Positions 3,301-52,891 of a stretch of 52,935 nt of DNA are shown one piece after another (position 1 is the stretch's first letter; every line of letters starts with the position of its first letter). The stretch comes from a phage. The notes under the pieces are model-generated. The model did not search any database and was not told the DNA's origin. It saw nothing but the letters and a program-made list of their open reading frames with translations. Location of the stretch: the NCBI GenBank assembly GCA_024614105.1, contig GCA_024614105.1_4894.1, one strand, 5' to 3'. Both the position numbers and the translations under genes were made by a program.

Positions 3301-3329
3301 TTTACTTTCGGTTTACCTGGCTATATAAT
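3301..3329 (+). promoter_or_regulatory. sigma70-type promoter (TTTACT-N17-TATAAT)
   Basis: -35 TTTACT 3301-3306, -10 TATAAT 3324-3329; upstream of scaffold-capsid genes. Confidence 0.55.
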
Positions 3330-4189: not shown

Positions 4190-5167
4190 ATGTCACTGTA
4201 TATTTTTAACGAACAAGTACGTTCTACCGCCACCGAACTGGTCGACCAGGACGTACAGAAGTTCAACGAAGCTTCTGCAGGTACCCTTATCCTGGGTAAC
4301 CAGTACGTAATTGGTGATTACGTTGAGCAGGCAATGTGGCAGCTGGTTGACGGCATCGCTACTCGCCGTAATGCTTACGCAGGCACCAACAAAGTTGATG
4401 CGCAGACTCTGGGCCAGATTCTGGACCGCTCTGTTAAAATCGACGGCCGTGTTGGTCCTCTGAACATTACCGGTACTATGATGCGTCGCATCGGTGCAGG
4501 CGATACTGAACCAGCAGCTGTTGTCGCTGCACAGGCTTCTGCTGCAATGTTCCAGGATTACCTGAACACCACTGCTGCATGTCTGGTAGCTGCTATCGGC
4601 GCAAACGCTGATGTTGTTCTGGACGTAACTTCAGGCTCCGGTGCTGCTGCAAACATCACCATGCAGAACCTGAACAAAGTCAACGCTAAGATGGGTGACC
4701 GTTCTCAGCAGATTCGTGCGTACATCATGCACTCTACTGCGTTCCACTCCCTCATCGATCAGGCTATCAATAACACGGAACATCTGTTCCAGATTGGTGA
4801 CCTGAACGTGTACAAAGACTTCCTGGGTCGTCGTTATGTCGTTTCCGACATCCCGGCTCTGGTTGATGGCGCTGGTTCTTCCGCTAAGTACCGCACTCTG
4901 GGTCTGACCCCGTCTGCTGCAATCGTTCAGGTCGGCGGCCTGTACGACATGGTTACCTCCGAGCAAACCGGTGGTGAAAACATCCTGCGTCAGATGCAGG
5001 GTGAATACGACTTCAACGTGTCGCTGAAAGGCTACAGCTGGGTCGGTCACAAAGCTGGTCAGTCTCCGACTGATGAAGACCTGGCTGCTCAGGCGTCCTG
5101 GTCTAAAGTTGCGACTTCCAACAAAGACACCGCTGGTGTTATGTTGCTGGCTAAGTCTGCAATCTAA
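4190..5167 (+). CDS. major capsid protein
   Basis: 325 aa ORF directly after scaffold gene, followed by a strong intrinsic terminator; Ala/Gly/Thr-rich; position-based. Confidence 0.65.
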   Translation: MSLYIFNEQVRSTATELVDQDVQKFNEASAGTLILGNQYVIGDYVEQAMWQLVDGIATRRNAYAGTNKVDAQTLGQILDRSVKIDGRVGPLNITGTMMRRIGAGDTEPAAVVAAQASAAMFQDYLNTTAACLVAAIGANADVVLDVTSGSGAAANITMQNLNKVNAKMGDRSQQIRAYIMHSTAFHSLIDQAINNTEHLFQIGDLNVYKDFLGRRYVVSDIPALVDGAGSSAKYRTLGLTPSAAIVQVGGLYDMVTSEQTGGENILRQMQGEYDFNVSLKGYSWVGHKAGQSPTDEDLAAQASWSKVATSNKDTAGVMLLAKSAI

Positions 5168-5188
5168 CCCACAAACGGGACTAACAAA

Positions 5189-5216
5189 AGGCGGGCTGAC
5201 GAGCTCGCCTTTTTTA
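5189..5216 (+). terminator. intrinsic terminator after capsid gene
   Basis: GC-rich hairpin AGGCGGGCT / AGCTCGCCT followed by TTTTTT. Confidence 0.65.
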
Positions 5217-5245
5217 TTTACACGTATAAAGTTCTGGTATATAAT
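5217..5245 (+). promoter_or_regulatory. sigma70-type promoter (TTTACA-N17-TATAAT)
   Basis: -35 5217-5222, -10 5240-5245, right after the capsid-gene terminator. Confidence 0.55.
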
Positions 5246-6260: not shown

Positions 6261-6637
6261 TGCTCAAGATAACTTCGCTAATGAAGGATAAAACCTTTGT
6301 AGCATTAACAGATGTTCTTCTCCGAAATGATTCACGCTTACCAAACGGCGACTTCGAGGACGAGTATACAGCTGCAAAGTATCTGTGTAACATTCAACCT
6401 GGTGCAGCTACTAACCAGCCTAACCTGTTGACTAAAGACGATGGCGAGCATGAGTTCCCACGTATTGCGATATACTGTGGACAAGAGCTGAAGCTCGGAG
6501 ACTTCGTTATATACGAAGACCAGCCATACCGTGTATTCCGTATCGACCCATGGAGTCGTCATGGCCACTACTACGTTACAGCAATTCTCCATAAAGGACC
6601 TCAGGGAGCTCGTTCAGAAGCTTTTAACATTACCTGA
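6260..6637 (+). CDS. hypothetical virion protein
   Basis: 125 aa; TAATG coupling to upstream gene; 3' end overlaps next ORF by about 77 nt, so its true C-terminus is uncertain. Confidence 0.35.
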   Translation: MLKITSLMKDKTFVALTDVLLRNDSRLPNGDFEDEYTAAKYLCNIQPGAATNQPNLLTKDDGEHEFPRIAIYCGQELKLGDFVIYEDQPYRVFRIDPWSRHGHYYVTAILHKGPQGARSEAFNIT

Positions 6638-7088
6638 CGGTGCATGCATTATTGGTGAAGAGTCTGGTACAGTTGATGGTACGCCGTATGTTTATCTGCG
6701 TCCTGGTGATGCTTATGACTTCGGACCTCCTAGAACCAGACAAGGCTCTGACGGCTTTGAGTACGTCAGCAAGCCAATGATGACGGCTGTACGTATTACA
6801 GCTGTCGGTAAGAATGCTGCTGAGCTAATGCGTAAGCTACACATAGCACTGGGTAGTTCACCAGCTAAGCAGTTTAACCGTTTACGGCATTATGCAATAA
6901 CCAAAATATCGAAGATTGATAATGTCGGTGGTGCTATTGGTGCAGGCTATGCTCAGAAGTCAATGCTGACTGTTGATATTAGCTATGTGCATAAAGTTAA
7001 AATTGAGCAACCGTACATCTACAAGGTTGACATCACTTGTATGGATGACAACGGTAACAAAGCGACTGGTACAGTAGAGGAACCGTAA
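6561..7088 (+). CDS. hypothetical virion protein
   Basis: Start moved to ATG 6561 (MATTT..) which has RBS GGAG 5 nt upstream; the ORF track start is 6531. Confidence 0.4.
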   Translation: MATTTLQQFSIKDLRELVQKLLTLPDGACIIGEESGTVDGTPYVYLRPGDAYDFGPPRTRQGSDGFEYVSKPMMTAVRITAVGKNAAELMRKLHIALGSSPAKQFNRLRHYAITKISKIDNVGGAIGAGYAQKSMLTVDISYVHKVKIEQPYIYKVDITCMDDNGNKATGTVEEP

Positions 7089-7711
7089 TGGCAACTGAAG
7101 TAGACCCGGAACTGCAAGCGCAGCTGGATAAGCTAACCACTGCTGTCCAGCTCATTCATGACTTCGGTATGTCAGGCGACCCAAACATCCCTAACCCGGA
7201 AGGCGGTGTCATACGCACACTCGAAGGCATTAACGCTGCAATCAACGAAGCTATACCAAACTTTGAAAACGCTAACGAAGCTGCTATCCAGGCGCGTGCT
7301 GCTCGTGACGCGGCTATTGCAGCCAAAGAAGCAGCAGAAGCCGCAGCTGAACATGCTACAGTATCTTCGACGTCAGCAATCTACGAGTACGGTAACGTTG
7401 CAAGTGCAGCTACAGTGACTATACCAGCTGCATCTAAAACAATTGTCAGCCTTACTCTTAACCAGCCAAACACCGTAATTAATATCGGTGGTGTATCTGA
7501 CCCATCTACTGTTGCGCGTCAGATTACTATTGCTATTAAGCAAGGCACTGGTTCTAACAAGGTGTCTTCCTGGGACTCCAGAATAAAATGGGCCAACAAC
7601 AGGAAGCCCGTTCTGTCATTCCTTGTGGGCTACACAGATGTTGTTACGTTGCTGACCTTTGACTCAGGTGCAACTTGGATGGGTTTCTTTAACGGTGGAT
7701 GGATTAAATAA
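7088..7711 (+). CDS. hypothetical virion protein
   Basis: 207 aa; RBS GAGGAA; Ala-rich helical N-terminus. Confidence 0.45.
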   Translation: MATEVDPELQAQLDKLTTAVQLIHDFGMSGDPNIPNPEGGVIRTLEGINAAINEAIPNFENANEAAIQARAARDAAIAAKEAAEAAAEHATVSSTSAIYEYGNVASAATVTIPAASKTIVSLTLNQPNTVINIGGVSDPSTVARQITIAIKQGTGSNKVSSWDSRIKWANNRKPVLSFLVGYTDVVTLLTFDSGATWMGFFNGGWIK

Positions 7712-10668
7712 TGCACACGATGTTGCTTAAAGACGGATCAGACCATCGAGCTAATGTCGAAAGCCTTATCGAAGGTCACCACCATTTTCTTGAGCGCAAT
7801 ACTGGCAGAACTGACGACGCTACGCGTCAGCATTATATCTTCAACCCAGAAGGAGTAGTGTCGAACAACCGCCATTTTATTGCGCACACCATGATGGAGT
7901 ACCAACCTAACGGTGATGCTCCGTCTGAAAGTCAGTCGCTGCTAATACTCGGCGAAATTCACGCGTACCTTGCTACTAAGGAACAGCGGTACCTTGACAA
8001 AGCAATTGAGTACTTCAATGCTTACGTCAAGTACTATTACGAGGGGGACCCAATCCCTGATACTCCTCGTCGCTGGATCGCTAACTGGCTTTGTAATGGC
8101 AAAGAGCCTGTGCTAGCCAGCTTCCCAATCAACCCTGTTTCACCGACACAAGGCGGCTATAAAAATGTGCCAGTTAAATTTGTTAACGGCAAAGCACAAA
8201 TCCCTCATGGTTCTCCTTTCTGGGGCGAGTACCTGGATGTTGCTACTTGGGCCCACAGGGGGCACATGGCTTGGCCTGCTATTAATGGTGGTGTCCGTGT
8301 TATTAAAAATAAAGTTGACTGGGACGATATTTACAACAATTACCGCATCACTACCATGCCAGCTGACCCGTGGAATCAGTTAGCCTGGATTGACTGGCCG
8401 AGGTATCTGGGTGAACCAAGCTACACTGTGGACTGGTCAGCGGCCGAACCTCCTGTACATCTCATCGAGTATATTGTTGCATGGACCAATAACAAGATTG
8501 GTGTTCTGCCTGGCAAAAATGATGAGCTATGGGGAGGCGAGATTCTTGAGACTGGACTTCCTGACTCTCGCAGAGGTGAGATTCAACTCCGTGACCATAC
8601 TGTCAACGGTGTGTATCTGCTTAACTACGCCGTTAAACTTCCTGTTGAACACGGTGGTTATTTGCTTAAGCGAAATGAAGTATGGCACAACAGACCTGTA
8701 AACGTTCCACTGTACGGCGAGCTTCAGCGGGGTAATGCTGCGGATGCTGAGTTGTGGTTCTGCGACTGCTGCTATATGCTGTGGCGAATTACTAAAGAGC
8801 AAAAGTATTACAACGCTTGGCGAGCTGTCCTGTTTACACTGGAGGAGTATATTGATATTGATAAACAAGACCAGTTCTTCCGTCAAGACTCTCACGCGTC
8901 ATCTCCGTTTACTGATGGCATCTCTTATGATTGGTCTTATCCTGAACTGGCACAAGCTATATATTCACGTGATGAAAATGGTTATATAGTTCTACGTCAG
9001 AACGAAAAAGCTCAATCATCTTTGGAGCAGCAGGCTGTATGGTTTAAGTGTAAGCCAACAGCTAAGATACGTACAGAGGTTGGTGGCAAAGATGATGCTG
9101 GTCAGAATATCAGTGTCAAGGTGGAAATGTACATGAACCGTGAAAAGGTTGACGTTGAGCAAAACATCTATCGTTTTGTCACACAGCTACCTGCTCTTGG
9201 TGCTTCACCTGCTAACTACGACATTCCGTTAAGCGATTTTGTCGCAGGTACTAAGCCAGACGGTTCTGAGTATATCTTAGCTGATATTCGTTCATCCACT
9301 GATTATGGCAACGCCACTATTGCAGTGTCTTACCGTACTGACATACTTGACAACAGACGTGGCAACACTGTCCGTATGACAATACCGGATAGTTCGTCAG
9401 GTGCCATTATAGGCTTTTGGCTACTGGAATCTTCCCAGGCACCTTTAAACTCGCTGACGTATACTTCTACAGGTCCGTTGTGCATCAAAGTAACTGACGC
9501 GCAAGGCTGGAGTTGGATACGTGATTTACCTGCCGCACCAGGCTGGGTAACTCAGCAGATTCGTACGTGGGAGTTCAGACTAGCGTCATACCAGGAAAAC
9601 ACAGGTACACCACCTACCAGCCCACAATTCGGCGAGATTAAGCAGTTCTCGTTTGTACTGCCTGATGGTGTTAATACGTCGACAAGTATTAGCTGGTACT
9701 GTGTGAATGATGTTCCGCCTCGCTATAACTGGCCAATTGGTTATACGATTAAGTACCGTCTTACTTTCTCGGCTGATAACCCGTACACAGCTAAGCTTGG
9801 CGACTGTACTGTGCTGGACTATGAGAATGATAACCTTGCTTACACGCCAGGTGTTATTCCGTTCTCCAACATTTATAACCCTGATTCTAAGCAGTTCGAT
9901 GGTTGGCACGGTATACCTTACCCTGGCTACCAGTATCCGTTTGTCTTTACACATGACGATACTGCAGCAGGTACAATCAGGCTGAACAACATGGTTAACT
10001 TTTTGTACGATTCTCAGCAATGGTACTTTAAGAAGTTTGGTCAGCTAGGTCCTGGTGCATCTGCTTTTATCTGGAACCGTTGGGATAACTTTAAATACGG
10101 TGTACCTGATACGTTTACCATGTATCACTGGGGTAATGGTAGTGCATGGTCAGGTTACCAGCCTCGTGCTTATTTCTCCGCAGCACGTGGATGGTATGAG
10201 CTAGTAAACCGCGGTAAGCCAGTTCCGAGTAAGCTTATTGCTTATGTGGATAACTGGTCAAAATGGTTGCTTGACTTCATGGAAAGGTCAGGAGGTGTGT
10301 CACCTTCTAACTTCCCGCAAGAAGGTGTTGCTCTGCCCGTCCCTTCAGACTTCACAGGTCACATGTGCGGACTGTGGCTTGCTGGTGCAGCTATGTCAGC
10401 CCTTTGTGGGTCAACAGTATCAGGGCTTGATAAGCTGATGGACATGCTTGTCAATGAGCTGGAAGACCATTACGACATAACTGGTATTCCGGGGCATGTA
10501 ATGGATGGTGGTTGGTCACCAGCGTTACGCCTTGAAACTGGTTCAGGACCTGAAAGCAACGCCATGTACTATGGTTTTTACTCTGGCGAAATATTACGAG
10601 GGTTGGGCTTATACCTGCTGTACAAAAACAAAGGGGCTAAAGCAGATATTTATGATTTAGGCCCGTAA
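7711..10668 (+). CDS. large Trp/Tyr-rich virion-associated protein of unknown function
   Basis: 985 aa uninterrupted ORF, RBS GGTGGA; lies between head-completion genes and the Ig-like protein genes; no motif recognised by eye. Confidence 0.55.
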   Translation: MHTMLLKDGSDHRANVESLIEGHHHFLERNTGRTDDATRQHYIFNPEGVVSNNRHFIAHTMMEYQPNGDAPSESQSLLILGEIHAYLATKEQRYLDKAIEYFNAYVKYYYEGDPIPDTPRRWIANWLCNGKEPVLASFPINPVSPTQGGYKNVPVKFVNGKAQIPHGSPFWGEYLDVATWAHRGHMAWPAINGGVRVIKNKVDWDDIYNNYRITTMPADPWNQLAWIDWPRYLGEPSYTVDWSAAEPPVHLIEYIVAWTNNKIGVLPGKNDELWGGEILETGLPDSRRGEIQLRDHTVNGVYLLNYAVKLPVEHGGYLLKRNEVWHNRPVNVPLYGELQRGNAADAELWFCDCCYMLWRITKEQKYYNAWRAVLFTLEEYIDIDKQDQFFRQDSHASSPFTDGISYDWSYPELAQAIYSRDENGYIVLRQNEKAQSSLEQQAVWFKCKPTAKIRTEVGGKDDAGQNISVKVEMYMNREKVDVEQNIYRFVTQLPALGASPANYDIPLSDFVAGTKPDGSEYILADIRSSTDYGNATIAVSYRTDILDNRRGNTVRMTIPDSSSGAIIGFWLLESSQAPLNSLTYTSTGPLCIKVTDAQGWSWIRDLPAAPGWVTQQIRTWEFRLASYQENTGTPPTSPQFGEIKQFSFVLPDGVNTSTSISWYCVNDVPPRYNWPIGYTIKYRLTFSADNPYTAKLGDCTVLDYENDNLAYTPGVIPFSNIYNPDSKQFDGWHGIPYPGYQYPFVFTHDDTAAGTIRLNNMVNFLYDSQQWYFKKFGQLGPGASAFIWNRWDNFKYGVPDTFTMYHWGNGSAWSGYQPRAYFSAARGWYELVNRGKPVPSKLIAYVDNWSKWLLDFMERSGGVSPSNFPQEGVALPVPSDFTGHMCGLWLAGAAMSALCGSTVSGLDKLMDMLVNELEDHYDITGIPGHVMDGGWSPALRLETGSGPESNAMYYGFYSGEILRGLGLYLLYKNKGAKADIYDLGP

Positions 10669-10674
10669 CCACTA

Positions 10675-10703
10675 TTTACTTAACCGAGGCGCCAGCCTAT
10701 AAT
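10675..10703 (+). promoter_or_regulatory. sigma70-type promoter with the -10 inside an 8-bp inverted repeat
   Basis: -35 TTTACT 10675-10680, -10 TATAAT 10698-10703; flanked by GCGCCAGC / GCTGGCGC. Confidence 0.5.
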
Positions 10704-10735
10704 AAGCTGGCGCACCCAATAAGAGGATTCTCCAG

Positions 10736-11374
10736 ATGGCAAATCGTACTACAGCCAACCGTCCTGTTAAAGACGCAGACCTGCGTCAAGAGTCGGTTAC
10801 TCAGTTCCCGTTAGCCAAGCCGACCAAGCTTGATGCGAACGGAAAATTCATTCCAACCCCAGTTACCGGTGTAACTGTTACACCTAAAGCTAAATCAATT
10901 GCTGTTGGTGAGTTTGCTACTCTGACAGCAGCAGTAGCCCCGGCAGACGCAGATGACGTCACCGTATTGTGGGAAAGCGATACACCTGCTAACGCCACTG
11001 TTGATGGTTCAGGTCGTGTACAGGGTATCAAAGTAGGTTCAGCAACTATTACTGCTAAATCCAAGCTTGACCCAGCCAAAACCGATACTGTAGCGATTAC
11101 GGTAACTGCTCCGCCTGTAGCAGTCACTGGTGTTACGTTAGCACCTAAGTCGCCAAGCGTTGTAGTAGGCTCCACTGTACAGCTGACTGCAACTGTACTG
11201 CCTGCTGGCGCTACTAACAAAGCTGTTACCTACGAATCAAACGACCAGTCTAAAGCTACCGTCAGTGCAACTGGTCTGGTGACCGGTAAAGCAGCTGGTG
11301 TCGTCACCATCACTGTCAAAACAGCTGATGGCAGCTTCACTGATACCGCGTCAGTAACTGTTACTGCTGAGTAA
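10736..11374 (+). CDS. Ig-like (Big_2-type) domain protein
   Basis: 212 aa with two repeats of the pattern VTGVT..P....(V/L)..G.T.QL.A.V.P..AT.K.VT(W/Y)ES....ATV...G.V.G...G..TIT. Confidence 0.65.
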   Translation: MANRTTANRPVKDADLRQESVTQFPLAKPTKLDANGKFIPTPVTGVTVTPKAKSIAVGEFATLTAAVAPADADDVTVLWESDTPANATVDGSGRVQGIKVGSATITAKSKLDPAKTDTVAITVTAPPVAVTGVTLAPKSPSVVVGSTVQLTATVLPAGATNKAVTYESNDQSKATVSATGLVTGKAAGVVTITVKTADGSFTDTASVTVTAE

Positions 11375-11382
11375 GGAGCTGA

Positions 11383-13515
11383 TTGATGTCGCTTCCACTT
11401 AATGAGGTTGTCGACGTCCAGTTCAGTAAGAGCAACGGGGGTAAAGGTTTTACCCCCAATGTTCCGCTGGAAGGTATAATGCTTTCCAACTACGAGTACT
11501 CAATCGTCGCGGGTGATGACCCTGTTCAGCTAGTTGTGCGTTACATTCCAACCAATGCTACTGAGCGTGGTATGGCGTGGAAATCTAGCGACCCGGACAT
11601 TATCACTGTTGATGAGCTCGGATTTGTGAAGCCACTGGCGGAAGGTGTTGCATACGTGACTGGTACGTCTGTTGACGGCGGTTATACAGTACGAGCAAAG
11701 TTTAACATTGCTCGGGCACCTATCCTTGTTGAATCTGTTACAGTGTCTCCCACAAGTGTGACGCTTGAAGAGGGTAAGACTCAACGTCTTACATACACCT
11801 ATTTACCTGCTAATGCAGACAAACCTGACTTCTACTGGATTTCAGACGATGAGTCTGTTGCTGTTGTTAACGACAGCGGGCTTGTCACTGCCATTGGGGA
11901 TGGTGAAACAACTGTAAACGTACAGTACGGTGTTGATAGCTCTATATTCGATAGCTGTACCGTAACTGTTATTCCGCCTATTGTACACGTTACAGGAGTT
12001 GAGTTTCTTACTCAATCGCCTCTTAACGTTAACATCGGAAGCACAGCTGGTACTAGTATTCGTATATCGCCAGAAGATGCCACTGACAAAACAGTGACAT
12101 ACGAAAGCAGTGCGCCTACTGTAGCAACTGTGGATACCGACGGAAATGTTACTGGCGTTATAGCTGGTAATGCCACTGTGACTGTTAAGACGAATGATGG
12201 TGATAAGACTGCTACTCTTGATATTATAGTCAGGGTGCCTGCTGTAAATGTTACCGGTGTAAGTATTGACGAAGGCGATACAGCTTCCATGGAAGTTGGA
12301 GACACTCTCCAGCTGCATGCCACTGTAACTCCTGAAAATGCTACTGACCCGTCTGTTGTATGGAGTGCTCCTGTATCAGAAGTTGCGTCTGTGACTGAAG
12401 CTGGTTTGGTAACCGCTAACGCTGCAGGCTTAATTGATGTTACTGTTATCACTAACGACGGGAACTTTACTGATAGAATCGAGGTTAAAGTTACAGACCC
12501 CAGCATCGCAGTTACGGATGTTGCATGGGCTCCTGACTCTCCGACTAAAGTAAGTGCCGGCCATCAGGTGCAGACTAAAATTGTTATAACACCTGACAAC
12601 GCAACCAACAAAAAAGTTAGCTATAATAGCTCAAACCCAGACGCTGTTACTGTTGATACTAACGGAGTTATATACGGTCAGTCTCCTGGAACTTCGACTA
12701 TTACAGTTACAACAGACGACGGTGGACTTGAGGCTTCGTTTGTAGCGACTTGCACGGAGGTTGCTGTTATTACACCAGATGGCCTTGGTGGTATTCCAGT
12801 CGGTGGTACTCAGCAATTCACTTTCACAGTTAGCCCGTCTGATGCTGAGCTGACTAACATTCGTTATGAGTCTGCTAACCCAGATATTGCAACTGTTGAC
12901 TCGTCTGGCGTTGTAACTGGTGTTGCTAGCGGCGGATGTAACATCTGGATTTATGCAACTAGCAATGGTGCGGACATTAGTGCAGCTACTTGGGCACAAA
13001 TTTCTGAGAAGGTGCAGGTATACCCTCAGTATGCCGAATGGCTTGTGGGTAACACCAAACAGCTTGATGTTGAGATTTATCCGTCTGACTCTAAGAGCGT
13101 TACTGTTACTTATGAATCGTCAAATGACGCTATCATTAGTGTAGATGCAAATGGCTTGATGACTGCTAAGTCTGAAGGTTCAGCAACTATTACTGCTAAC
13201 GTTGTGATGAACGGTGTTGCTGCTTCTGGTACAACATCTCCTTACGTGTCTGAGCTTTCTGTTACTACTGATTCGCTGCCTGCACTTACTGTTGGCAACA
13301 CGCAGCAGCTGGTTGTAACTGTTAGACCTGAATACGCTAAGACAGACCCAGGCTATAACATTCAGTATACAACTACAGACGATACTGTCGCTGCTGTAAG
13401 TAATACCGGTGTTATTACTGGCGTTGGTAACGGTGGATGTCGTATTGGTGCCACAGTAACTGTGAGAAATGCTACAGCGTCGGACAGCTCTTATCAGTCC
13501 GTCGATGCAGCATAA
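11383..13515 (+). CDS. multi-domain Ig-like (Big_2-type) protein, possible decoration or fibre protein
   Basis: 710 aa containing roughly seven or eight diverged copies of the same ~85-aa Ig-like repeat; RBS AAGGAG. Confidence 0.65.
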   Translation: MMSLPLNEVVDVQFSKSNGGKGFTPNVPLEGIMLSNYEYSIVAGDDPVQLVVRYIPTNATERGMAWKSSDPDIITVDELGFVKPLAEGVAYVTGTSVDGGYTVRAKFNIARAPILVESVTVSPTSVTLEEGKTQRLTYTYLPANADKPDFYWISDDESVAVVNDSGLVTAIGDGETTVNVQYGVDSSIFDSCTVTVIPPIVHVTGVEFLTQSPLNVNIGSTAGTSIRISPEDATDKTVTYESSAPTVATVDTDGNVTGVIAGNATVTVKTNDGDKTATLDIIVRVPAVNVTGVSIDEGDTASMEVGDTLQLHATVTPENATDPSVVWSAPVSEVASVTEAGLVTANAAGLIDVTVITNDGNFTDRIEVKVTDPSIAVTDVAWAPDSPTKVSAGHQVQTKIVITPDNATNKKVSYNSSNPDAVTVDTNGVIYGQSPGTSTITVTTDDGGLEASFVATCTEVAVITPDGLGGIPVGGTQQFTFTVSPSDAELTNIRYESANPDIATVDSSGVVTGVASGGCNIWIYATSNGADISAATWAQISEKVQVYPQYAEWLVGNTKQLDVEIYPSDSKSVTVTYESSNDAIISVDANGLMTAKSEGSATITANVVMNGVAASGTTSPYVSELSVTTDSLPALTVGNTQQLVVTVRPEYAKTDPGYNIQYTTTDDTVAAVSNTGVITGVGNGGCRIGATVTVRNATASDSSYQSVDAA

Positions 13516-13540: not shown

Positions 13541-13569
13541 TTTACTTGGTTAAACTTACTGAGTATAAT
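13541..13569 (+). promoter_or_regulatory. sigma70-type promoter (TTTACT-N17-TATAAT)
   Basis: -35 13541-13546, -10 13564-13569, upstream of sheath-like gene; flanked by TGGCCA...TGGCC. Confidence 0.55.
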
Positions 13570-13601: not shown

Positions 13602-14741
13602 ATGCCGTTGAATGTAAACCAGATTGTAAACGTTCAACTGAACAACACTCCAACTGGTATCAGCAAAGGTGACTTCGGTAAGCTGGCTCTTTTAACTCAG
13701 GACCCTGGCACTGCTTTTCCTGACAGCGACAACGGACACTATGTTGAAATCGGCAGCTACTCTGAAGCCGAGTCTTATTGGGGTACTGGTTCAGTTGTAC
13801 TTGGCGCGCTGAAGATTTTCTTTGCACAATCTCCGCGTCCTCGTTCAGTAGTTATCGCCTCATGGAGCAACACCTCTACTCTGGATGCGGCTATTAAAGC
13901 ATTCAACGATGTGTATCCTGACTGGTATGTTCTGCGTCCGCTTCCGCCTACTGGTGAGCTGTCTGACAAGGACATCGATTTGCTGGCGTCAACTGTTGCT
14001 GCCTACGATAAAAAACGTTGCAGCTACACTACCACTAAAGCAACTCATATTGAAAACAGCGACTCCAACCCGATTAAAGTTCTGGCTGGTAAAGGCTACA
14101 ACAATATGTGGCTTCAGTACGATAAGAACAACCAACACTATGCAGACATTTCTGCTATGGCGCGTGCTCTGTCTGTTAACTTCTCTGGTAACCGCACTAC
14201 TATTACCATGAAGTTCAAACAAGAGCCTGGTATTACACCGAACAACACTTTAACGCTCACTGAAGCTAACAAGTGTAAGGCGCTGGGTATTAACTGGTAC
14301 ACCTACTACAGCACCTTTGCTATGCTTGCAGAAGGTACTGTCCTCGGTACGTCCAAGCCGCCACGCTTCTGGGATGAAGTACATGGTCTCGACTGGTTCT
14401 GTAATGCTGTCCAGACTTACGTCTTCAACTCAATCGCTACGTCACCCACGAAGGTGCCGCAGACGAACAAAGGTCACGAGCGCCTTACCGGTGCTGCAGC
14501 TGTTGCTTGTCAGCAGGCTGTCGACAACGGCTTGGTTGCACCTGGTATCTGGTACGGTGATGAGTTTGGTACACTGTCTTATGGTGACCGACTCGAAACA
14601 GGTTTCTACATCTACATCCCTGACGTAGATGACCAGCCTCTGGATGAGCGTGAAGCTCGTCAGGCCGTTGTAATGCAAATCGCGATTAAGCTGGCTGGTG
14701 CAATCCACTCCAGTGACATCCTGATTAACTTCACTCGCTAA
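13602..14741 (+). CDS. putative tail sheath protein
   Basis: 379 aa, first gene of the tail block after a promoter, followed by small tube-like gene, chaperone and tape measure; assignment by gene order. Confidence 0.45.
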   Translation: MPLNVNQIVNVQLNNTPTGISKGDFGKLALLTQDPGTAFPDSDNGHYVEIGSYSEAESYWGTGSVVLGALKIFFAQSPRPRSVVIASWSNTSTLDAAIKAFNDVYPDWYVLRPLPPTGELSDKDIDLLASTVAAYDKKRCSYTTTKATHIENSDSNPIKVLAGKGYNNMWLQYDKNNQHYADISAMARALSVNFSGNRTTITMKFKQEPGITPNNTLTLTEANKCKALGINWYTYYSTFAMLAEGTVLGTSKPPRFWDEVHGLDWFCNAVQTYVFNSIATSPTKVPQTNKGHERLTGAAAVACQQAVDNGLVAPGIWYGDEFGTLSYGDRLETGFYIYIPDVDDQPLDEREARQAVVMQIAIKLAGAIHSSDILINFTR

Positions 14742-15631: not shown

Positions 15632-15813
15632 AACGCAAGCAACAGTCAGGGACGCAAGAAACTGACTGGTTCGTTTGGCTTCCTATTCTCAAGGGTCATG
15701 TGACCCTTGCAGAATTAAAGTCGTCTTACAGCTTGTGTGATTTGTGCGACCTGCATATTGCTATTCTGGACTATGCCGAGTTAGAGGAAATCCATGGCGA
15801 CCATAATCGATAG
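15203..15813 (+). CDS. tail assembly chaperone, predicted -1 frameshifted long isoform
   Basis: After T_TTT_TTC (15571-15577) the -1 frame stays open for 79 codons to TAG at 15811-15813, filling the otherwise noncoding 15632-15793 gap. Confidence 0.45.
15571..15577 (+). other. candidate -1 programmed ribosomal frameshift slippery site (T TTT TTC)
   Basis: X_XXY_YYZ heptamer in the 0 frame (gat ttt ttc) 18 codons before the chaperone stop, in the canonical position between tube and tape-measure genes. Confidence 0.45.
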
Positions 15814-17458
15814 CTTTCTGGTAACGCTTGAGAGTAAAGCTGATAGTTCTGGCTTTGACCTCTTCGACCAGCTGTCCCGCCGTTTTGTGATTACCCTCGG
15901 CGATGTAATCAATCTTGCTGAGCGCGCAGCTGGTGCGCTCGGTAGGATGTTTGCGCCTGCGTTAGAGGCTGACGTACTCGCCGCCAAGATTAAAGGCTTC
16001 GGCTACGACGTTGAGTCGACGTGGAAAACGCTGATGGATATGTCTCTGCAAATGGGTACACCATTCCAGGAGGCACTAGACGGCTTTACTAAACTTAAAT
16101 CGTATGGCGTTGACCCGTTAAACGGTTCGCTACAAATGCTCAAAACAATCACTGCTGCAACAGGCGGTGATTTGGCACGTACCATTGTTGCGTACGGCCA
16201 GGCAACTGCGATGGGTTCATTGCAGGGCCAGGAAAAGAACCAGTTCATTAACGCCGGTGTTGACATCTGGGGCGCATTGTCCCGCTACACTGGTAAGCAA
16301 CTCGGCGAGCTTCAGGATATGATGCGGCAGAAGAAAATTACTGCCGACATACTGACTAGCGCGCTGAAACAAGAAGCCGAACGGCTAAAACCAATTGCCC
16401 ACGAAGTGTCACAGACACTCAAAGCGCAGTTAACTAACCTGAGCACAATTTGGTATGCTGCTCGTTCTAAGATTACCCAGACCCGAGTATGGGATGAGGT
16501 AACTAAAGGCGCGATAAGTATGGTTAAGTCACTCACAACAGTGCTTAACGATACCACACTTACTGCTGCATTTAAAAAGTTCGACGAAGTTGTATTCAAT
16601 ACAATTGAAAACGTAAAACGACTTATCTACGTTATCGGGGATAACTTCCCGTTAATGGTTGCAATAACCTCATACGCGCTGATGTCGCTTATTCCAGTGC
16701 TGGCTAAGGTAGGCAACGCCTTTGTGGGCTTAGCTGCCAAAATACTTATGAATCCGCTCACGTGGATTGTACTGGCTATCGGCGCAGTTATTGCTGTGCT
16801 TGCTGACCTCGATGACGCTCTGGCAGGACGTGAGACAGTTGTTAAGTGGTCAAAAGATGTTGTAGCCGCATGGGGAATTGTCAAGCAGTATATCGTAGTT
16901 ATTGCAGACTTTATTCTGTCAATATTTGACGGCCGTTTATGGAACAAACTCGGTAACTGGTGGCAAGGTTTCCTCGGCGAAGTTAAGCAAGGCATAGAGC
17001 AAATAAAGCTGTGGTTGTCTGAAGCGCTTTACCAGCTACCTGGCGGTAAGTTCCTGATGGCGTTGTTTGGTAAGCTCGATTCTACACTTGGCTTTGCTGG
17101 CAACAAACTTGTGACAGGTGCTGAGGCTACTGTTAATGCCGTGTCGCCTACCACTGAGCAGGGTGGAAGCTTCTGGAGTAGGGCACTCAACTGGTCTATG
17201 CGTAACTTCAACCCTATCACAGGGGAGATGACAGCTGGTGGTCAGGCTATGCAGTCAGCCATAAATACTGCTAAGCAAAGCCAGCAGCAGCAGAACGCAA
17301 CTGTTATCCACCAGGATAATAGCGTTAAAGTTGATGCTACTATTACAGGTGTACAGAACCCACAAGAAGTAGGTCGTGAGGTCAATGACCAGGTCAAACA
17401 GGCGCAGAAAGAGAATGCTACTGTAAGGGCTAACAACAAAACGGCGGTAACACAATGA
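15794..17458 (+). CDS. tail tape measure protein
   Basis: 554 aa; helical N-terminal half, hydrophobic segment (PLMVAITSYALMSLIPVLAKVG...IVLAIGAVIAVLA), follows the chaperone; RBS AGAGGA. Confidence 0.55.
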   Translation: MATIIDSFLVTLESKADSSGFDLFDQLSRRFVITLGDVINLAERAAGALGRMFAPALEADVLAAKIKGFGYDVESTWKTLMDMSLQMGTPFQEALDGFTKLKSYGVDPLNGSLQMLKTITAATGGDLARTIVAYGQATAMGSLQGQEKNQFINAGVDIWGALSRYTGKQLGELQDMMRQKKITADILTSALKQEAERLKPIAHEVSQTLKAQLTNLSTIWYAARSKITQTRVWDEVTKGAISMVKSLTTVLNDTTLTAAFKKFDEVVFNTIENVKRLIYVIGDNFPLMVAITSYALMSLIPVLAKVGNAFVGLAAKILMNPLTWIVLAIGAVIAVLADLDDALAGRETVVKWSKDVVAAWGIVKQYIVVIADFILSIFDGRLWNKLGNWWQGFLGEVKQGIEQIKLWLSEALYQLPGGKFLMALFGKLDSTLGFAGNKLVTGAEATVNAVSPTTEQGGSFWSRALNWSMRNFNPITGEMTAGGQAMQSAINTAKQSQQQQNATVIHQDNSVKVDATITGVQNPQEVGREVNDQVKQAQKENATVRANNKTAVTQ

Positions 17459-18351
17459 GTGACATCTTTGCTGGAATTACTGATGCTGCCAATAACTTGT
17501 ACCAAGACGCCCGTGACAGACTCATGGGCGACGGTACAACCACCTTACGCTTCCGCAACTGCGGAGGCATTAAGATGGATGCTGTCACTAATGAAGAGCA
17601 TCAGTCTGACCTTGACATCGCTGACAATGAACTTGAGTCCGGGGCTAAGGCTTCGGACCATGCTGCTGTACAACCAAAAGTTATTACTGTAACTGGCGTG
17701 GTAGTTGGCTATATTGACGAGTCGATTCAAGAGTCAACAGTTAGTGACGTAACCGGCTTACGGTCTATGGATTTCTTGGATGATATTCAGCTTCCACAGG
17801 TAGTGTCTACTGTCCTCGAAGGAACAAGGGACTTTGCTGTTAACAAGCTAGTCTCATTCATAGACTGGGGCGGTTTAGACGCCACCATTTCACGCTCTTT
17901 AGTTCCATGGCTTCCTGACTTTAGTATAGCTGAACAACTTAAGTCTTCGGACAACATGAGGATTGAACAGGTATACCGTACACTGCTGGATTTACAGAAA
18001 AACGTTATTTACTGTGACGTTGATACTGGTATCTTCAAGTATACGAATATGCTTTTGAAGTCTGTTCGTGTTGTGCAGGAGAAAGATGGTTCAGCTACGT
18101 TTACCCTTACGTTCCGTGAAGTCATTGAAGTACCGATTGTAGTTACAAACGCTGTAGCCGCTAAGTCGACAGGTCGCCCTGCTAATAACGGCACCAAGAA
18201 AAGCGGACGAGCTCAAGGCCAGGGTGACGCCACCAGTAAGAAGGATATAAACACAACTACACCGATTAGCGAGAAGCGTGTAAACGATAACCGCGGTTTT
18301 GGTGTAACACTCGGTGACATGTTTGGCTTTAACCTACGAGGCATATTCTGA
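17455..18351 (+). CDS. tail/baseplate assembly protein
   Basis: 298 aa, ATGA overlap with tape measure stop. Confidence 0.45.
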   Translation: MSDIFAGITDAANNLYQDARDRLMGDGTTTLRFRNCGGIKMDAVTNEEHQSDLDIADNELESGAKASDHAAVQPKVITVTGVVVGYIDESIQESTVSDVTGLRSMDFLDDIQLPQVVSTVLEGTRDFAVNKLVSFIDWGGLDATISRSLVPWLPDFSIAEQLKSSDNMRIEQVYRTLLDLQKNVIYCDVDTGIFKYTNMLLKSVRVVQEKDGSATFTLTFREVIEVPIVVTNAVAAKSTGRPANNGTKKSGRAQGQGDATSKKDINTTTPISEKRVNDNRGFGVTLGDMFGFNLRGIF

Positions 18352-21845: not shown

Positions 21846-22491
21846 ATATCATAAACTACTTATTCAACAGTACGCTGATAAGCCAAAAGCTGTTGCAACT
21901 ATTAAGGGCTTCGATGATGCAATTCAAGGTATCTGGGACGGCGCCCAACAAGTTGTTGATAGCCTTAATATCGATAAAGCTTTTGGTAAAGGTCTTGATA
22001 ATGTTGCAGCCCGCGTCGGCGCATCTCGTGTTCTCAAGAAAGGCGTAGACCGTAAGTTCTTCGGCTTTACTAACAAAGTACCAGACGTGCTTGGCTTCGG
22101 TGGTTCGTCAGGTAATAAAGGTGGCCCGTTCTATCGCTACGGCGCATCAGTATGGGACCCGGTAATTCTTGACGACATTGACCTGCGTACTTACATCAAG
22201 ATGAAAATCTGGAAGAACATGCAAGATGGTACTATGCCGTATTTAATAGACTTCCTGATTGAATTCTTCGGAATGAATAACTTCGTTATAACTGACAACG
22301 AAGATATGACAATGACTCTGGAGATATACAGTACTCTGACTCCGCTTAAGCAAGTGCTGATTCAGAACTACGATATACTTCCGCGCCCCACAGGGGTGAA
22401 GATTGAACTTAACACGAGCGTTGACGTCACGGATAGTCTGTACCGTTACGCTACTGTAAACTTACCAGCACAGGTGAATGTATATGGCTGA
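21832..22491 (+). CDS. tail protein
   Basis: 219 aa between J-like gene and fibre gene. Confidence 0.45.
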   Translation: MLMAEYHKLLIQQYADKPKAVATIKGFDDAIQGIWDGAQQVVDSLNIDKAFGKGLDNVAARVGASRVLKKGVDRKFFGFTNKVPDVLGFGGSSGNKGGPFYRYGASVWDPVILDDIDLRTYIKMKIWKNMQDGTMPYLIDFLIEFFGMNNFVITDNEDMTMTLEIYSTLTPLKQVLIQNYDILPRPTGVKIELNTSVDVTDSLYRYATVNLPAQVNVYG

Positions 22492-23818
22492 TGTACAAAC
22501 AAGACCCGATAACGACATCTTCGCCAGCTCCGCGGGTACTGGTGAACTGCTGCCGTTCGGTGACCTTGCTCGAGGCTGGGGTGCAACCCTTGGCTACTCG
22601 GAAGGTATTCCTCCGATGGAGTGGTTTAACTTTATTGGTAACCGTACTGACAAAGGTATCCACTACATCCTTCAGCAGGGTGTTGATATATGGGTAGAAA
22701 CTGAGACCTACCCGGTTGGTGCACTGGTTAAAGTTAACGCCGACAATATGCTGTACCGTTGTCTGGTGCAGAACATTAATATGTCACCGTCTGCTAACCC
22801 TACACAATGGCGCCCTGTACTTGACCTGACTGCGGCAACTGCGGCAGCACGACAGGTTGGTAAAGCCTCTGGTAACGTAATCCAGGTCGGTGCATTTGGC
22901 TTAGGTGGCAACGCTGAGGTAGTTACTAATGCTAACAGCATTGTAAACGACGGTATCTACCAGCTTCCAGCGTCAGGTACGGGCGGACCTACTAACGGCG
23001 TTGAGACTGAGATTCTGCATATCAACTGGGATGAGAAAAACGCTTCACAGTGGGGACGCACCAAGGGTAAGCGCGTAATAGCTATGCGCGAGAAGGTTAA
23101 CAATACCTGGGGCGGATGGTCATACTCTTACGGGCCTGATAATAAACCTACGGCAGCTGAGCTGGGTATTAACCAGGACTTCATCCCTATGGATGGTTCT
23201 GACTCTATCCGTGGTAACTTAGGTACTGTTGGCTGGCTGCATATTGCACGTACTACTTCCGACTTGCTACGTGCTGCTAACTCCGCCGGCGTAGGTACTG
23301 TTGAATATTCTGGTAACATCGCAGGTGGTACTGCTGTTCAGGAGTTGCTGACTTCAGTTTCTGTCGCGGCTAACAGTAATGTTGTCACTGCGGCTCGCTG
23401 GGGGTCTGTACCTATGTCGCACATCCAGCACATCCTTGTGGCTGGCGGTGCTACCCAGATTAACATGGCGGTATGTCGCCCTGGTGGTATTGCCGACCGC
23501 CGTACAGTAGCTTTGCAGGTGGATGGTCTTAACAACCGAGTAACTACCACAAATAGCTTTATTTTATGTGAGAATGGTGTTAGAGTATATTCACCTAACA
23601 ACCCGCAGCCTATCGATACTTCAGCCGGTAACGTTCGGGGTATTCGACTTGGCGCTCGTATTGCAGCTGGTGTATCTGAGTCAACGTTCTACCCAGGCCA
23701 TGTAATGACTGGCTGGCGCTTCGGCAATAAGAAAGAGCTGCGCGGTGGTACATACTGGTCAGCGCCGTTACAGTATTATATCAACGGCACTTGGATTAAC
23801 GTAAGCAACGTATCGTAA
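22478..23818 (+). CDS. tail fibre protein
   Basis: 446 aa, Gly/Thr/Asn-rich C-terminal half, followed by two chaperone-like paralogs. Confidence 0.5.
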   Translation: MYMADVQTRPDNDIFASSAGTGELLPFGDLARGWGATLGYSEGIPPMEWFNFIGNRTDKGIHYILQQGVDIWVETETYPVGALVKVNADNMLYRCLVQNINMSPSANPTQWRPVLDLTAATAAARQVGKASGNVIQVGAFGLGGNAEVVTNANSIVNDGIYQLPASGTGGPTNGVETEILHINWDEKNASQWGRTKGKRVIAMREKVNNTWGGWSYSYGPDNKPTAAELGINQDFIPMDGSDSIRGNLGTVGWLHIARTTSDLLRAANSAGVGTVEYSGNIAGGTAVQELLTSVSVAANSNVVTAARWGSVPMSHIQHILVAGGATQINMAVCRPGGIADRRTVALQVDGLNNRVTTTNSFILCENGVRVYSPNNPQPIDTSAGNVRGIRLGARIAAGVSESTFYPGHVMTGWRFGNKKELRGGTYWSAPLQYYINGTWINVSNVS

Positions 23819-42149: not shown

Positions 42150-42179
42150 TTTACTCTGGTTTAATAACGTGTATATAAT
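42150..42179 (+). promoter_or_regulatory. sigma70-type promoter (TTTACT-N18-TATAAT)
   Basis: -35 42150-42155, -10 42174-42179; drives 42210 gene and primase-helicase. Confidence 0.55.
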
Positions 42180-46955: not shown

Positions 46956-47156
46956 TTACTCTATCATTACCTGAACTACTATTATACACTCTTTATTGAA
47001 GCGAGTAAACACTTTTCCACCATTAGTGCGTTTAGCCCCAGATTTTAGAGCTGACTGGCACCAGATATGCCACTCCTCAACTGTCAAGAATTTTTGTTCA
47101 GCTTTGGGTGGCAATCCATGGGCAAGGTCTACCGTAGTAAATTTGACTAATGGCAT
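46956..47156 (-). CDS. hypothetical small protein
   Basis: 66 aa from ATG 47156; TGATG coupling. Confidence 0.35.
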   Translation of the reverse strand: MPLVKFTTVDLAHGLPPKAEQKFLTVEEWHIWCQSALKSGAKRTNGGKVFTRFNKECIIVVQVMIE

Positions 47157-52862: not shown

Positions 52863-52891
52863 TTTACTTACTTCGCGTAACTCGTTATAAT
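52863..52891 (+). promoter_or_regulatory. sigma70-type promoter (TTTACT-N17-TATAAT)
   Basis: -35 52863-52868, -10 52886-52891. Confidence 0.5.

Follow-up and report, generated by a model that had tools for sequence, protein, structure and literature searches.

In K1E and K1-5 (gp37 adaptor), CBA120 (N-terminal modules of the TSP proteins) and G7C (gp63.1 and gp66), an enzymatic receptor-binding protein that can be exchanged is mounted on a conserved docking module. The same logic appears to apply to a two-gene locus of a Rosemountvirus contig of 52,935 nucleotides (nt) (GCA_024614105.1_4894.1, from NCBI GenBank assembly GCA_024614105.1), the whole of which is referred to below as the window. 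This locus consists of a gene for a 985-amino acid (aa) protein and, directly upstream, a gene for a 207-aa partner:

7088-7711, plus strand: 207-aa partner, the proposed adaptor, matching PHROG 27998 'tail fiber protein'
7711-10668, plus strand: 985-aa tail protein of PHROG 2871, homologue of phi92 gp141

The adaptor-mounted tailspikes are trimeric beta-helix proteins, whereas the enzymatic subunit is here predicted to be an (alpha/alpha)6 barrel.

Full-length homologues of the 985-aa protein have been described in several phages (phi92 gp141, PVP-SE1 gp50, phAPEC8 gp097, rV5 gp42, and S144 gp17), and in each of them a small partner gene lies upstream. As quoted in a review, phi92 gp141 was listed as a predicted 'glycosidase' by Schwarzer et al., 2012 (PMC3457257). 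The BASEL annotation of an rV5-like homologue reads 'lateral tail fiber protein with glycosidase domains', and HHpred analysis of the protein of S144, which belongs to a sister genus, gave a hint of hydrolase activity. Proteomics of S144 virions detected gp17 (111 kDa) with 25 peptides and 33% coverage, and also gp16; rV5 gp42 and its small neighbor gp43 were both found in the virion proteome. In comparison with the phi92-type homologues, the pair of the window is situated after the neck genes and before the sheath gene, whereas theirs is housed in the baseplate module; the N-terminus of the partner differs, and the 985-aa protein contains an extra stretch of approximately 50 aa (aa 199-250) that is absent from phi92 gp141.

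As a member of a large family of tail proteins that has been annotated before, the 985-aa protein is ordinary. What is added here is a split-barrel architecture, a set of invariant candidate residues, a near-obligate adaptor partner, and a link to cellulose that is backed by the literature. Very probably, the protein has a glycosidase fold and is borne on the tail by way of an adaptor. With more reserve, we favor a two-protein accessory tail appendage in which it is the sugar-directed, distal subunit.

The protein family and its upstream partner

The open reading frame (ORF) starts with ATG and extends over 7711-10668 of the plus strand, and both its coordinates and the size of its product agree with an initial annotation that had been made from the letters of the window. 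Judged by its conservation it is no chance reading frame, because tblastn matched it in 533 out of 50,697 phage records (approximately 1%), usually over the full length and with 29-47% identity. The richness in Trp and Tyr that had been pointed out was confirmed: the protein contains 36 Trp (3.7%) and 62 Tyr (6.3%), the means for the 26 structural-module proteins being 1.55% (standard deviation 0.98) and 3.27% (standard deviation 1.65), respectively, and its W+Y+F content (13.6%) is the highest among them. A P-loop motif (GxxxxGK[ST]) was not found in the protein, again as annotated. A gene of this size had been considered unexpected, a view that is not sustained, since its product belongs to the large known family PHROG 2871 ('tail protein'), whose hidden Markov model (HMM) it matches over aa 3-980 (E=0, 1422 bits). 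Its identity to phi92 gp141 is 43% by BLASTP over 977 alignment columns.

The carriers of this family are myo-, podo- and jumbo phages. By tblastn they include phi92/PVP-SE1/phAPEC8-like and rV5-like phages, Felix-O1-related Erwinia phages (phiEa104), phage 7-11, the T7-like Serratia phage Kaonashi, the jumbo phages 121Q/G17 and Asesino/SPFM3, and Vibrio phages. The region itself shows approximately 97% nt identity to Rosemountviruses such as LPSEYT, BP63, UPF_BP2, swi3, and SPLA12, and among Rosemountviruses isolated on different serovars and species the 985-aa protein is 93-99% identical.

Some database records of carriers deserve a comment. The host labels of two of them look doubtful: 'Listeria phage 220426122051' (PP583539.1) is 96% identical to the present enterobacterial Rosemountvirus, and the homologue of 'Campylobacter phage C12' (MG065635.1) shows approximately the same score, identity and span as those of E. 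coli rV5-like phages. In MN158218.1 (BEC1-17) and MT768059.1 (swi3), some genes under the match to 7000-11400 are named 'diguanylate cyclase/phosphodiesterase' or '1,4-alpha-glucan branching enzyme'. Such names appear to be artefacts of annotation, because the counterparts in the window matched only tail-fibre, tail-protein and Ig-domain PHROGs.

The stop codon of the partner gene overlaps the start codon of the large gene (TAATG). The partner is composed of a helical N-terminal part with a long helix (aa 59-94) and a C-terminal beta-sandwich (approximately aa 100-207), and its AF2 model has a pLDDT of approximately 90 across the C-terminal domain. The last 95 aa or so are conserved in the small upstream genes of phi92 (gp140), phAPEC8, Kaonashi, and 7-11. 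An HMM of this domain found a match in the ORF directly upstream of the large gene at 12 of 13 loci, the window included, with E values from 9e-45 to 6e-20. The sole exception was Serratia phage PCH45, in which the large module is fused to an N-terminal extension of approximately 277 aa annotated as 'tail protein I'. No match was obtained for the partner profile among the PDB sequences.

The N-termini of the partners are specific to each lineage: a Phage_T7_tail domain in Kaonashi, a Tail_spike_N domain, known from CBA120 TSP1 and G7C gp66, in the rV5-like phage RudolfGeigy, and a helical segment in the window. The Kaonashi pair fills the tail-fibre slot, with the holin gene coming next. Fusions of other family members involve Tail_P2_I, the podophage Gp77 fibre-tail adaptor or N4-type NCTSP (non-contractile sheath) domains, and in P0041, P0058, and P0078 a C-terminal Big_2 array is fused to the glycosidase module. 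The longer homologues P0010 and P0033 were considered as partner-enzyme fusions and rejected, their extra length consisting of internal insertions. The simplest reading of the pair is a portable two-gene cassette, made up of an anchor or adaptor and a sugar-directed distal subunit.

A predicted split barrel and its candidate active site

Structure prediction and fold search, proposed in the initial annotation as a check, were run and returned an (alpha/alpha)6 glycosidase-type barrel together with jelly rolls that resemble carbohydrate-binding modules (CBM). According to the model, the 985-aa protein is a split (alpha/alpha)6 'six-hairpin' glycoside hydrolase (GH) barrel formed by aa ~10-135, 335-400, and 735-985, with a beta-rich insertion and CBM-like jelly-roll domains between these segments. 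Its parts, all on the plus strand, are as follows:

7738-8115, plus strand: barrel segment 1 (aa 10-135, helices 1-3), with the candidate proton donor E73
8116-8712, plus strand: beta-rich insertion 1 (aa 136-334), which includes the variable stretch ~aa 199-250
8713-8910, plus strand: barrel segment 2 (aa 335-400, helices 4-5), with the motif G-N-A-A-D-A-E-L-W-F
8911-9912, plus strand: CBM-resembling beta-sandwich region (aa 401-734), from Foldseek, with PHROG 23426 at aa 520-696
9913-10665, plus strand: barrel segment 3 (aa 735-985, helices 7-12), with the conserved W788-N-R790-W-D792

For the beta-sandwich region, Foldseek retrieved CBM11, CBM22, and CBM6-type jelly rolls. A barrel-only family profile matched the GH76 enzyme 4c1s (E=1.3e-5); with the full-length family profile, only a marginal match to a GH76 helix-hairpin was obtained in the PDB (E=0.016). 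When three barrel-only constructs were compared with Pfam, GH8 was not found, and one homologue matched GH127 just under the curated cut-off. A trimeric beta-helix tailspike was rejected as a description of the protein: the model consists of an alpha/alpha barrel and jelly rolls, and no beta-helix tailspike was among the listed fold matches.

A copy of the beta-sandwich was also observed in the 'putative proximal tail fiber' of phiEa104 (L008:3143-4648, 502 aa), at aa 307-490 (HMM E=7e-48), and the CBM-like module therefore circulates on its own as well.

Conservation was assessed in an alignment of 51 sequences (A1) and in another of 14 very divergent members (A5), which included rV5-like and Vibrio homologues with approximately 32% identity. 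E73, D345 and E347 are invariant in both; Q75 is nearly invariant in A1 and invariant in A5; and N342 and W349 do not vary in A1 and hardly do so in A5. The same pattern was found for D792, which lies in the motif W-N-R-W-D-N and is not alignable to the GH8 base. E73 (nt 7927-7929) is located within S-E-S-Q-S, for which the family consensus is T-E-G-Q-S; D345 and E347 correspond to nt 8743-8745 and 8749-8751, respectively. In the model, helices 2 and 4 have E73, Q75, D345, and E347 at their N-termini. GH8 enzymes have their Glu donor and an Asp at these positions. The consensus segments T-E-G-Q-S and N-A-A-D-A-E-x-W-F resemble T-S-E-G-Q-S (E55) and A-S-D-G-D-V-W (D116) of BcsZ. Compared with the GH8 enzymes (E. 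coli BcsZ and C. thermocellum CelA, clan GH-M), the barrel of the 985-aa protein is split by approximately 530 inserted residues; GH8 enzymes are periplasmic or secreted, whereas the 985-aa protein is, judging by its homologues, a virion component. Retention of catalysis is likely. The initial suggestion of a virion-borne polysaccharide enzyme is thus partly upheld: fold, conservation and the proteomics of homologues speak for it, with enzymatic activity as a prediction.

Cellulose and other candidate glycans

A link to cellulose comes from a TraDIS study (sequencing of transposon-directed insertion sites) of S. Typhimurium, in which insertions in the cellulose synthesis (bcs) genes yhjL, yhjN, yhjQ, yhjR, yhjS, and yhjU lowered susceptibility to SPLA2. 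Its authors concluded that Rosemountvirus SPLA2 recognises cellulose, naming no phage protein. The SPLA2 homologue is 98.6% identical to the 985-aa protein. The Erwinia Kolesnikvirus M7, also reported to be cellulose-dependent, carries the complete pair of partner and large gene. In the established cellulose-dependent Erwinia phage S6, a GH48 (gp094) and a GH5 (gp095) are encoded in the tail region. The likeness to the present case lies in tail-region proteins, clan GH-M-type (alpha/alpha)6 folds and phages that need cellulose on their hosts. S6 gp094 is a genuine GH48 by its Pfam match (E=1.5e-198), without detectable sequence relationship to PHROG 2871, so S6 is a precedent and functional analogue, not a homologue. 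GH48 membership of the 985-aa protein, or homology to S6 gp094, was rejected (hhalign E=0.24).

In the mechanism that we propose, the 207-aa partner would be anchored to the tail by its N-terminus and its C-terminal domain would dock the 985-aa protein. The barrel would then bind, and probably hydrolyse, a chemically conserved host exopolysaccharide, which would provide first contact with the matrix, or passage through it, before the Mu-type fibre (22478-23818) engages lipopolysaccharide (LPS). Bacterial (phosphoethanolamine-)cellulose is put forward, tentatively, as the leading substrate candidate. About equally likely, and held with a similar degree of doubt, is that the same tail-borne glycan-binding or glycan-cleaving protein is directed to a conserved surface glycan other than cellulose, the candidates being O-antigen, LPS core, enterobacterial common antigen, the N4 glycan receptor, colanic acid, or another beta-linked exopolysaccharide. 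Against this alternative, two independent reports tie family carriers to cellulose, and the 93-99% identity across Rosemountviruses argues against a variable target such as O-antigen.

Several observations weigh against the 985-aa protein being an adaptor-mounted glycosidase directed to cellulose. The intact protein was assigned to no family by sequence searches of Pfam, NCBIfam and the PDB, and no enzymatic or binding assay of any PHROG 2871 member was found in the searchable literature. hhalign pairs the motif segments mentioned above with E55 and D116 of BcsZ at non-significant values, E=0.3 for BcsZ and E=0.068 for a profile of 18 orthologues, a narrow one in which all sequences are at least 60% identical; barrel segment 2 was the only segment aligned at E=0.068. 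Pfam Glyco_hydro_8 (PF01270) was matched neither by the full-length protein nor by barrel-only constructs, and nothing in the 985-aa protein was found to correspond to Y-D-A-x-R, the motif of the GH8 catalytic base in BcsZ. Because hhalign was non-significant, Pfam GH8 was unmatched and no base could be assigned, the protein is filed under the six-hairpin glycosidase fold and not under GH8. On the side of the partner, the fold search with its model gave weak matches to tailspike N-termini (E=3e-3 and 0.5), and the partner-target interaction, the stoichiometry and the position in the Rosemountvirus virion are points that we infer. As for the substrate, SPLA11 depends on LPS and not on cellulose, and its protein, at 97% identity, shares the candidate residues; LPS is also the reported receptor of phiEa21-4, a phage with the pair. 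E. coli K-12 is cellulose-negative. rV5-like phages that carry the PHROG 2871 family plaque on this strain, and the large protein is therefore not essential there. Finally, the dependence on bcs genes could reflect the outer-membrane protein BcsC or indirect effects instead of the polymer.

The cellulose-dependent SPLA2 and the LPS-dependent SPLA11 were compared. They differ at 31 aa of the large protein, including W221A, Y591C, and W620S, with 11 of the 31 differences clustered at aa 200-249, and at 10 aa of the fibre. The most divergent tail-module protein between them is an Ig-repeat protein (83.4% identity), which has 710 aa in the window (Ig710, 11383-13515), 709 in SPLA2 and 622 in SPLA11 (L015:21799-23667), where approximately one Big_2 domain is lost. 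Assignment of the cellulose-versus-LPS difference to one gene failed, as the large protein, the fibre and Ig710 all differ.

A wider proposal, which we regard as speculative, is that PHROG 2871 constitutes a new GH8-related, adaptor-mounted GH family with which diverse phages bind and cut cellulose as a chemically invariant first receptor. The phages in question would be Rosemountvirus, Kolesnikvirus, phi92/rV5-like phages, jumbo phages and podoviruses.

Alternative roles, gene order and significance

A further explanation is that the 985-aa protein is a catalytically inert scaffold, forming the 'arm' or hub of a branched fibre that carries other receptor-binding proteins (the Ig-repeat proteins here, gp142/gp143 in phi92). 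This is unlikely, although the phi92 gene does lie between gp140 and the gene for the endosialidase gp143, and fibre I of phi92 has been described as an L-shaped arm with the endosialidase at its tip. The C-terminal fusions to Big_2 arrays, NCTSP domains and the Gp77 adaptor would also suit a scaffold, as would a sequence conservation that is unusually high for a receptor-binding protein. However, the canonical active-site positions of the barrel hold polar and acidic residues that stay invariant even at approximately 32% identity, CBM-like domains are present, and the Kaonashi pair is the only product of the tail-fibre slot. The two roles, scaffold and enzyme, can moreover coexist.

In the cryo-EM study of phi92 (2026), fibre II and the arm of fibre I were left without a protein; gp140 was considered alone and gp141 was never mentioned. 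The strictly co-inherited gp140-gp141 (L002:4239-7588) were accordingly not considered as a complex for fibre II or for the fibre I arm.

The landmarks along the window, assigned by PHROG annotation or, for the Ig-repeat proteins, by PHROG matches, are:

283-1731: TerL
4190-5167: major capsid protein
6531-7088: tail-terminator-like protein
10736-13515, plus strand: two Big_2/Ig-repeat proteins of 212 aa (Ig212) and 710 aa (Ig710)
13602-14741: sheath
15794-17458: tape measure
22478-23818: Mu gpS-like (Mu-type) tail fibre

In full, the order is TerL, portal, scaffold, major capsid protein, Ad1 adaptor, Neck1/tail completion, phrog_939, tail-terminator-like protein, the 207-aa 'tail fiber protein', the 985-aa gene, Ig212, Ig710, sheath, tube, chaperone, tape measure, P2/Mu-type baseplate, Mu gpS-like fibre, two chaperones and endolysin. 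This order places the 985-aa gene at the neck/tail boundary, outside the head block in which it had been described as embedded. The initial annotation was right in placing the tape measure elsewhere, at 15794, and Ig-domain genes 3' of the 985-aa gene; Ig212 and Ig710 may be associated with the appendage. The gene had looked associated with head completion because a putative transcription unit, beginning with the promoter-like site at 5217, ends with it.

That the product is a neck, collar, whisker or head-decoration protein is very unlikely. In its favor, the gene shares this putative transcription unit with the Ad1, Neck1 and tail-terminator-like genes, and the long helix of the partner resembles fibritin-type stalks. 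Nevertheless, the pair adjoins baseplate genes in phi92, phAPEC8, rV5-like phages and Vibrio D495, and the P2 gpI baseplate wedge domain occurs in fusion with family members. The micrograph legend of S144 has only short rigid fibres at the distal tail, the words 'collar' and 'whisker' being absent from the text of that paper. Fold searches revealed no structural similarity to head or neck proteins, and the decoration/neck protein initially suggested is left without support. The other initial suggestion, a peptidoglycan hydrolase or cell-wall-acting ejection protein released at infection, would fit a large virion component and is hardly credible, as no lysozyme, transglycosylase or peptidase fold was found by Pfam and fold searches, the gene is paired with a tail-fibre-type adaptor and takes an external fibre slot in podoviruses, and neither transmembrane nor internal-virion features were noted.

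The promoter-like motif TTTAC[A/T]-N16-18-TATAAT occurs 7 times in the window, 0.04 being expected by chance:

5217-5245, plus strand: promoter-like site TTTACA-17-TATAAT, directly after the hairpin 5186-5213
10675-10703, plus strand: promoter-like site between the 985-aa gene and the Ig-protein genes
3301-3329, 13541-13569, 42150-42179, 46981-47009 (minus strand) and 52863-52891: further promoter-like copies

Four of the seven copies fall in intergenic gaps of the structural module, where they would define late transcription units. The putative unit starting at 5217 would run from Ad1 through the partner gene to the 985-aa gene, its last gene. Directly 3' of the major capsid gene, at 5186-5213, there is a strong terminator-like hairpin of 12 pairs followed by a T-run. 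The 67-nt intergenic stretch downstream of the 985-aa gene (-19.7 kcal/mol, z = -4.0) contains at 10689-10713 an 8-bp GC-rich hairpin, GCGCCAGC...GCTGGCGC, whose loop holds the -10 TATAAT of the 10675 site; it is not a classical terminator, because no T-run follows it.

Two neighboring genes were also looked at. The mechanical ORF of the tail-terminator-like protein (6531-7088) has a GTG start, encodes 185 aa and overlaps the preceding gene by 107 nt; its real start is probably about 10 codons downstream, because the counterpart is annotated with 175 aa in SPLA2 and SPLA11. The 298-aa protein encoded after the tape measure (17455-18351; PHROG 817) is the counterpart of the phi92 gp135 tube initiator; a short N-terminal segment of it (aa 38-87) matches an endolysin PHROG and may be a peptidoglycan-binding motif.

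The phages that carry the family include candidates for therapy or biocontrol, among them Rosemountvirus, phi92-like and rV5-like phages, PVP-SE1 and the Erwinia Kolesnikviruses. If the proposed function is not confirmed, an ordinary accessory tail protein remains. If it is true, the cellulose dependence of SPLA2 and M7 would have been traced to its phage protein, and a matrix-degrading enzyme of possible anti-biofilm use would be at hand. Recognition of cellulose would then explain the bcs dependence of SPLA2 and M7, the high conservation across lineages and, through a gp140-gp141 complex, part of the unassigned fibre density of phi92, and would help in assigning the unresolved fibre densities of phi92-type baseplates.

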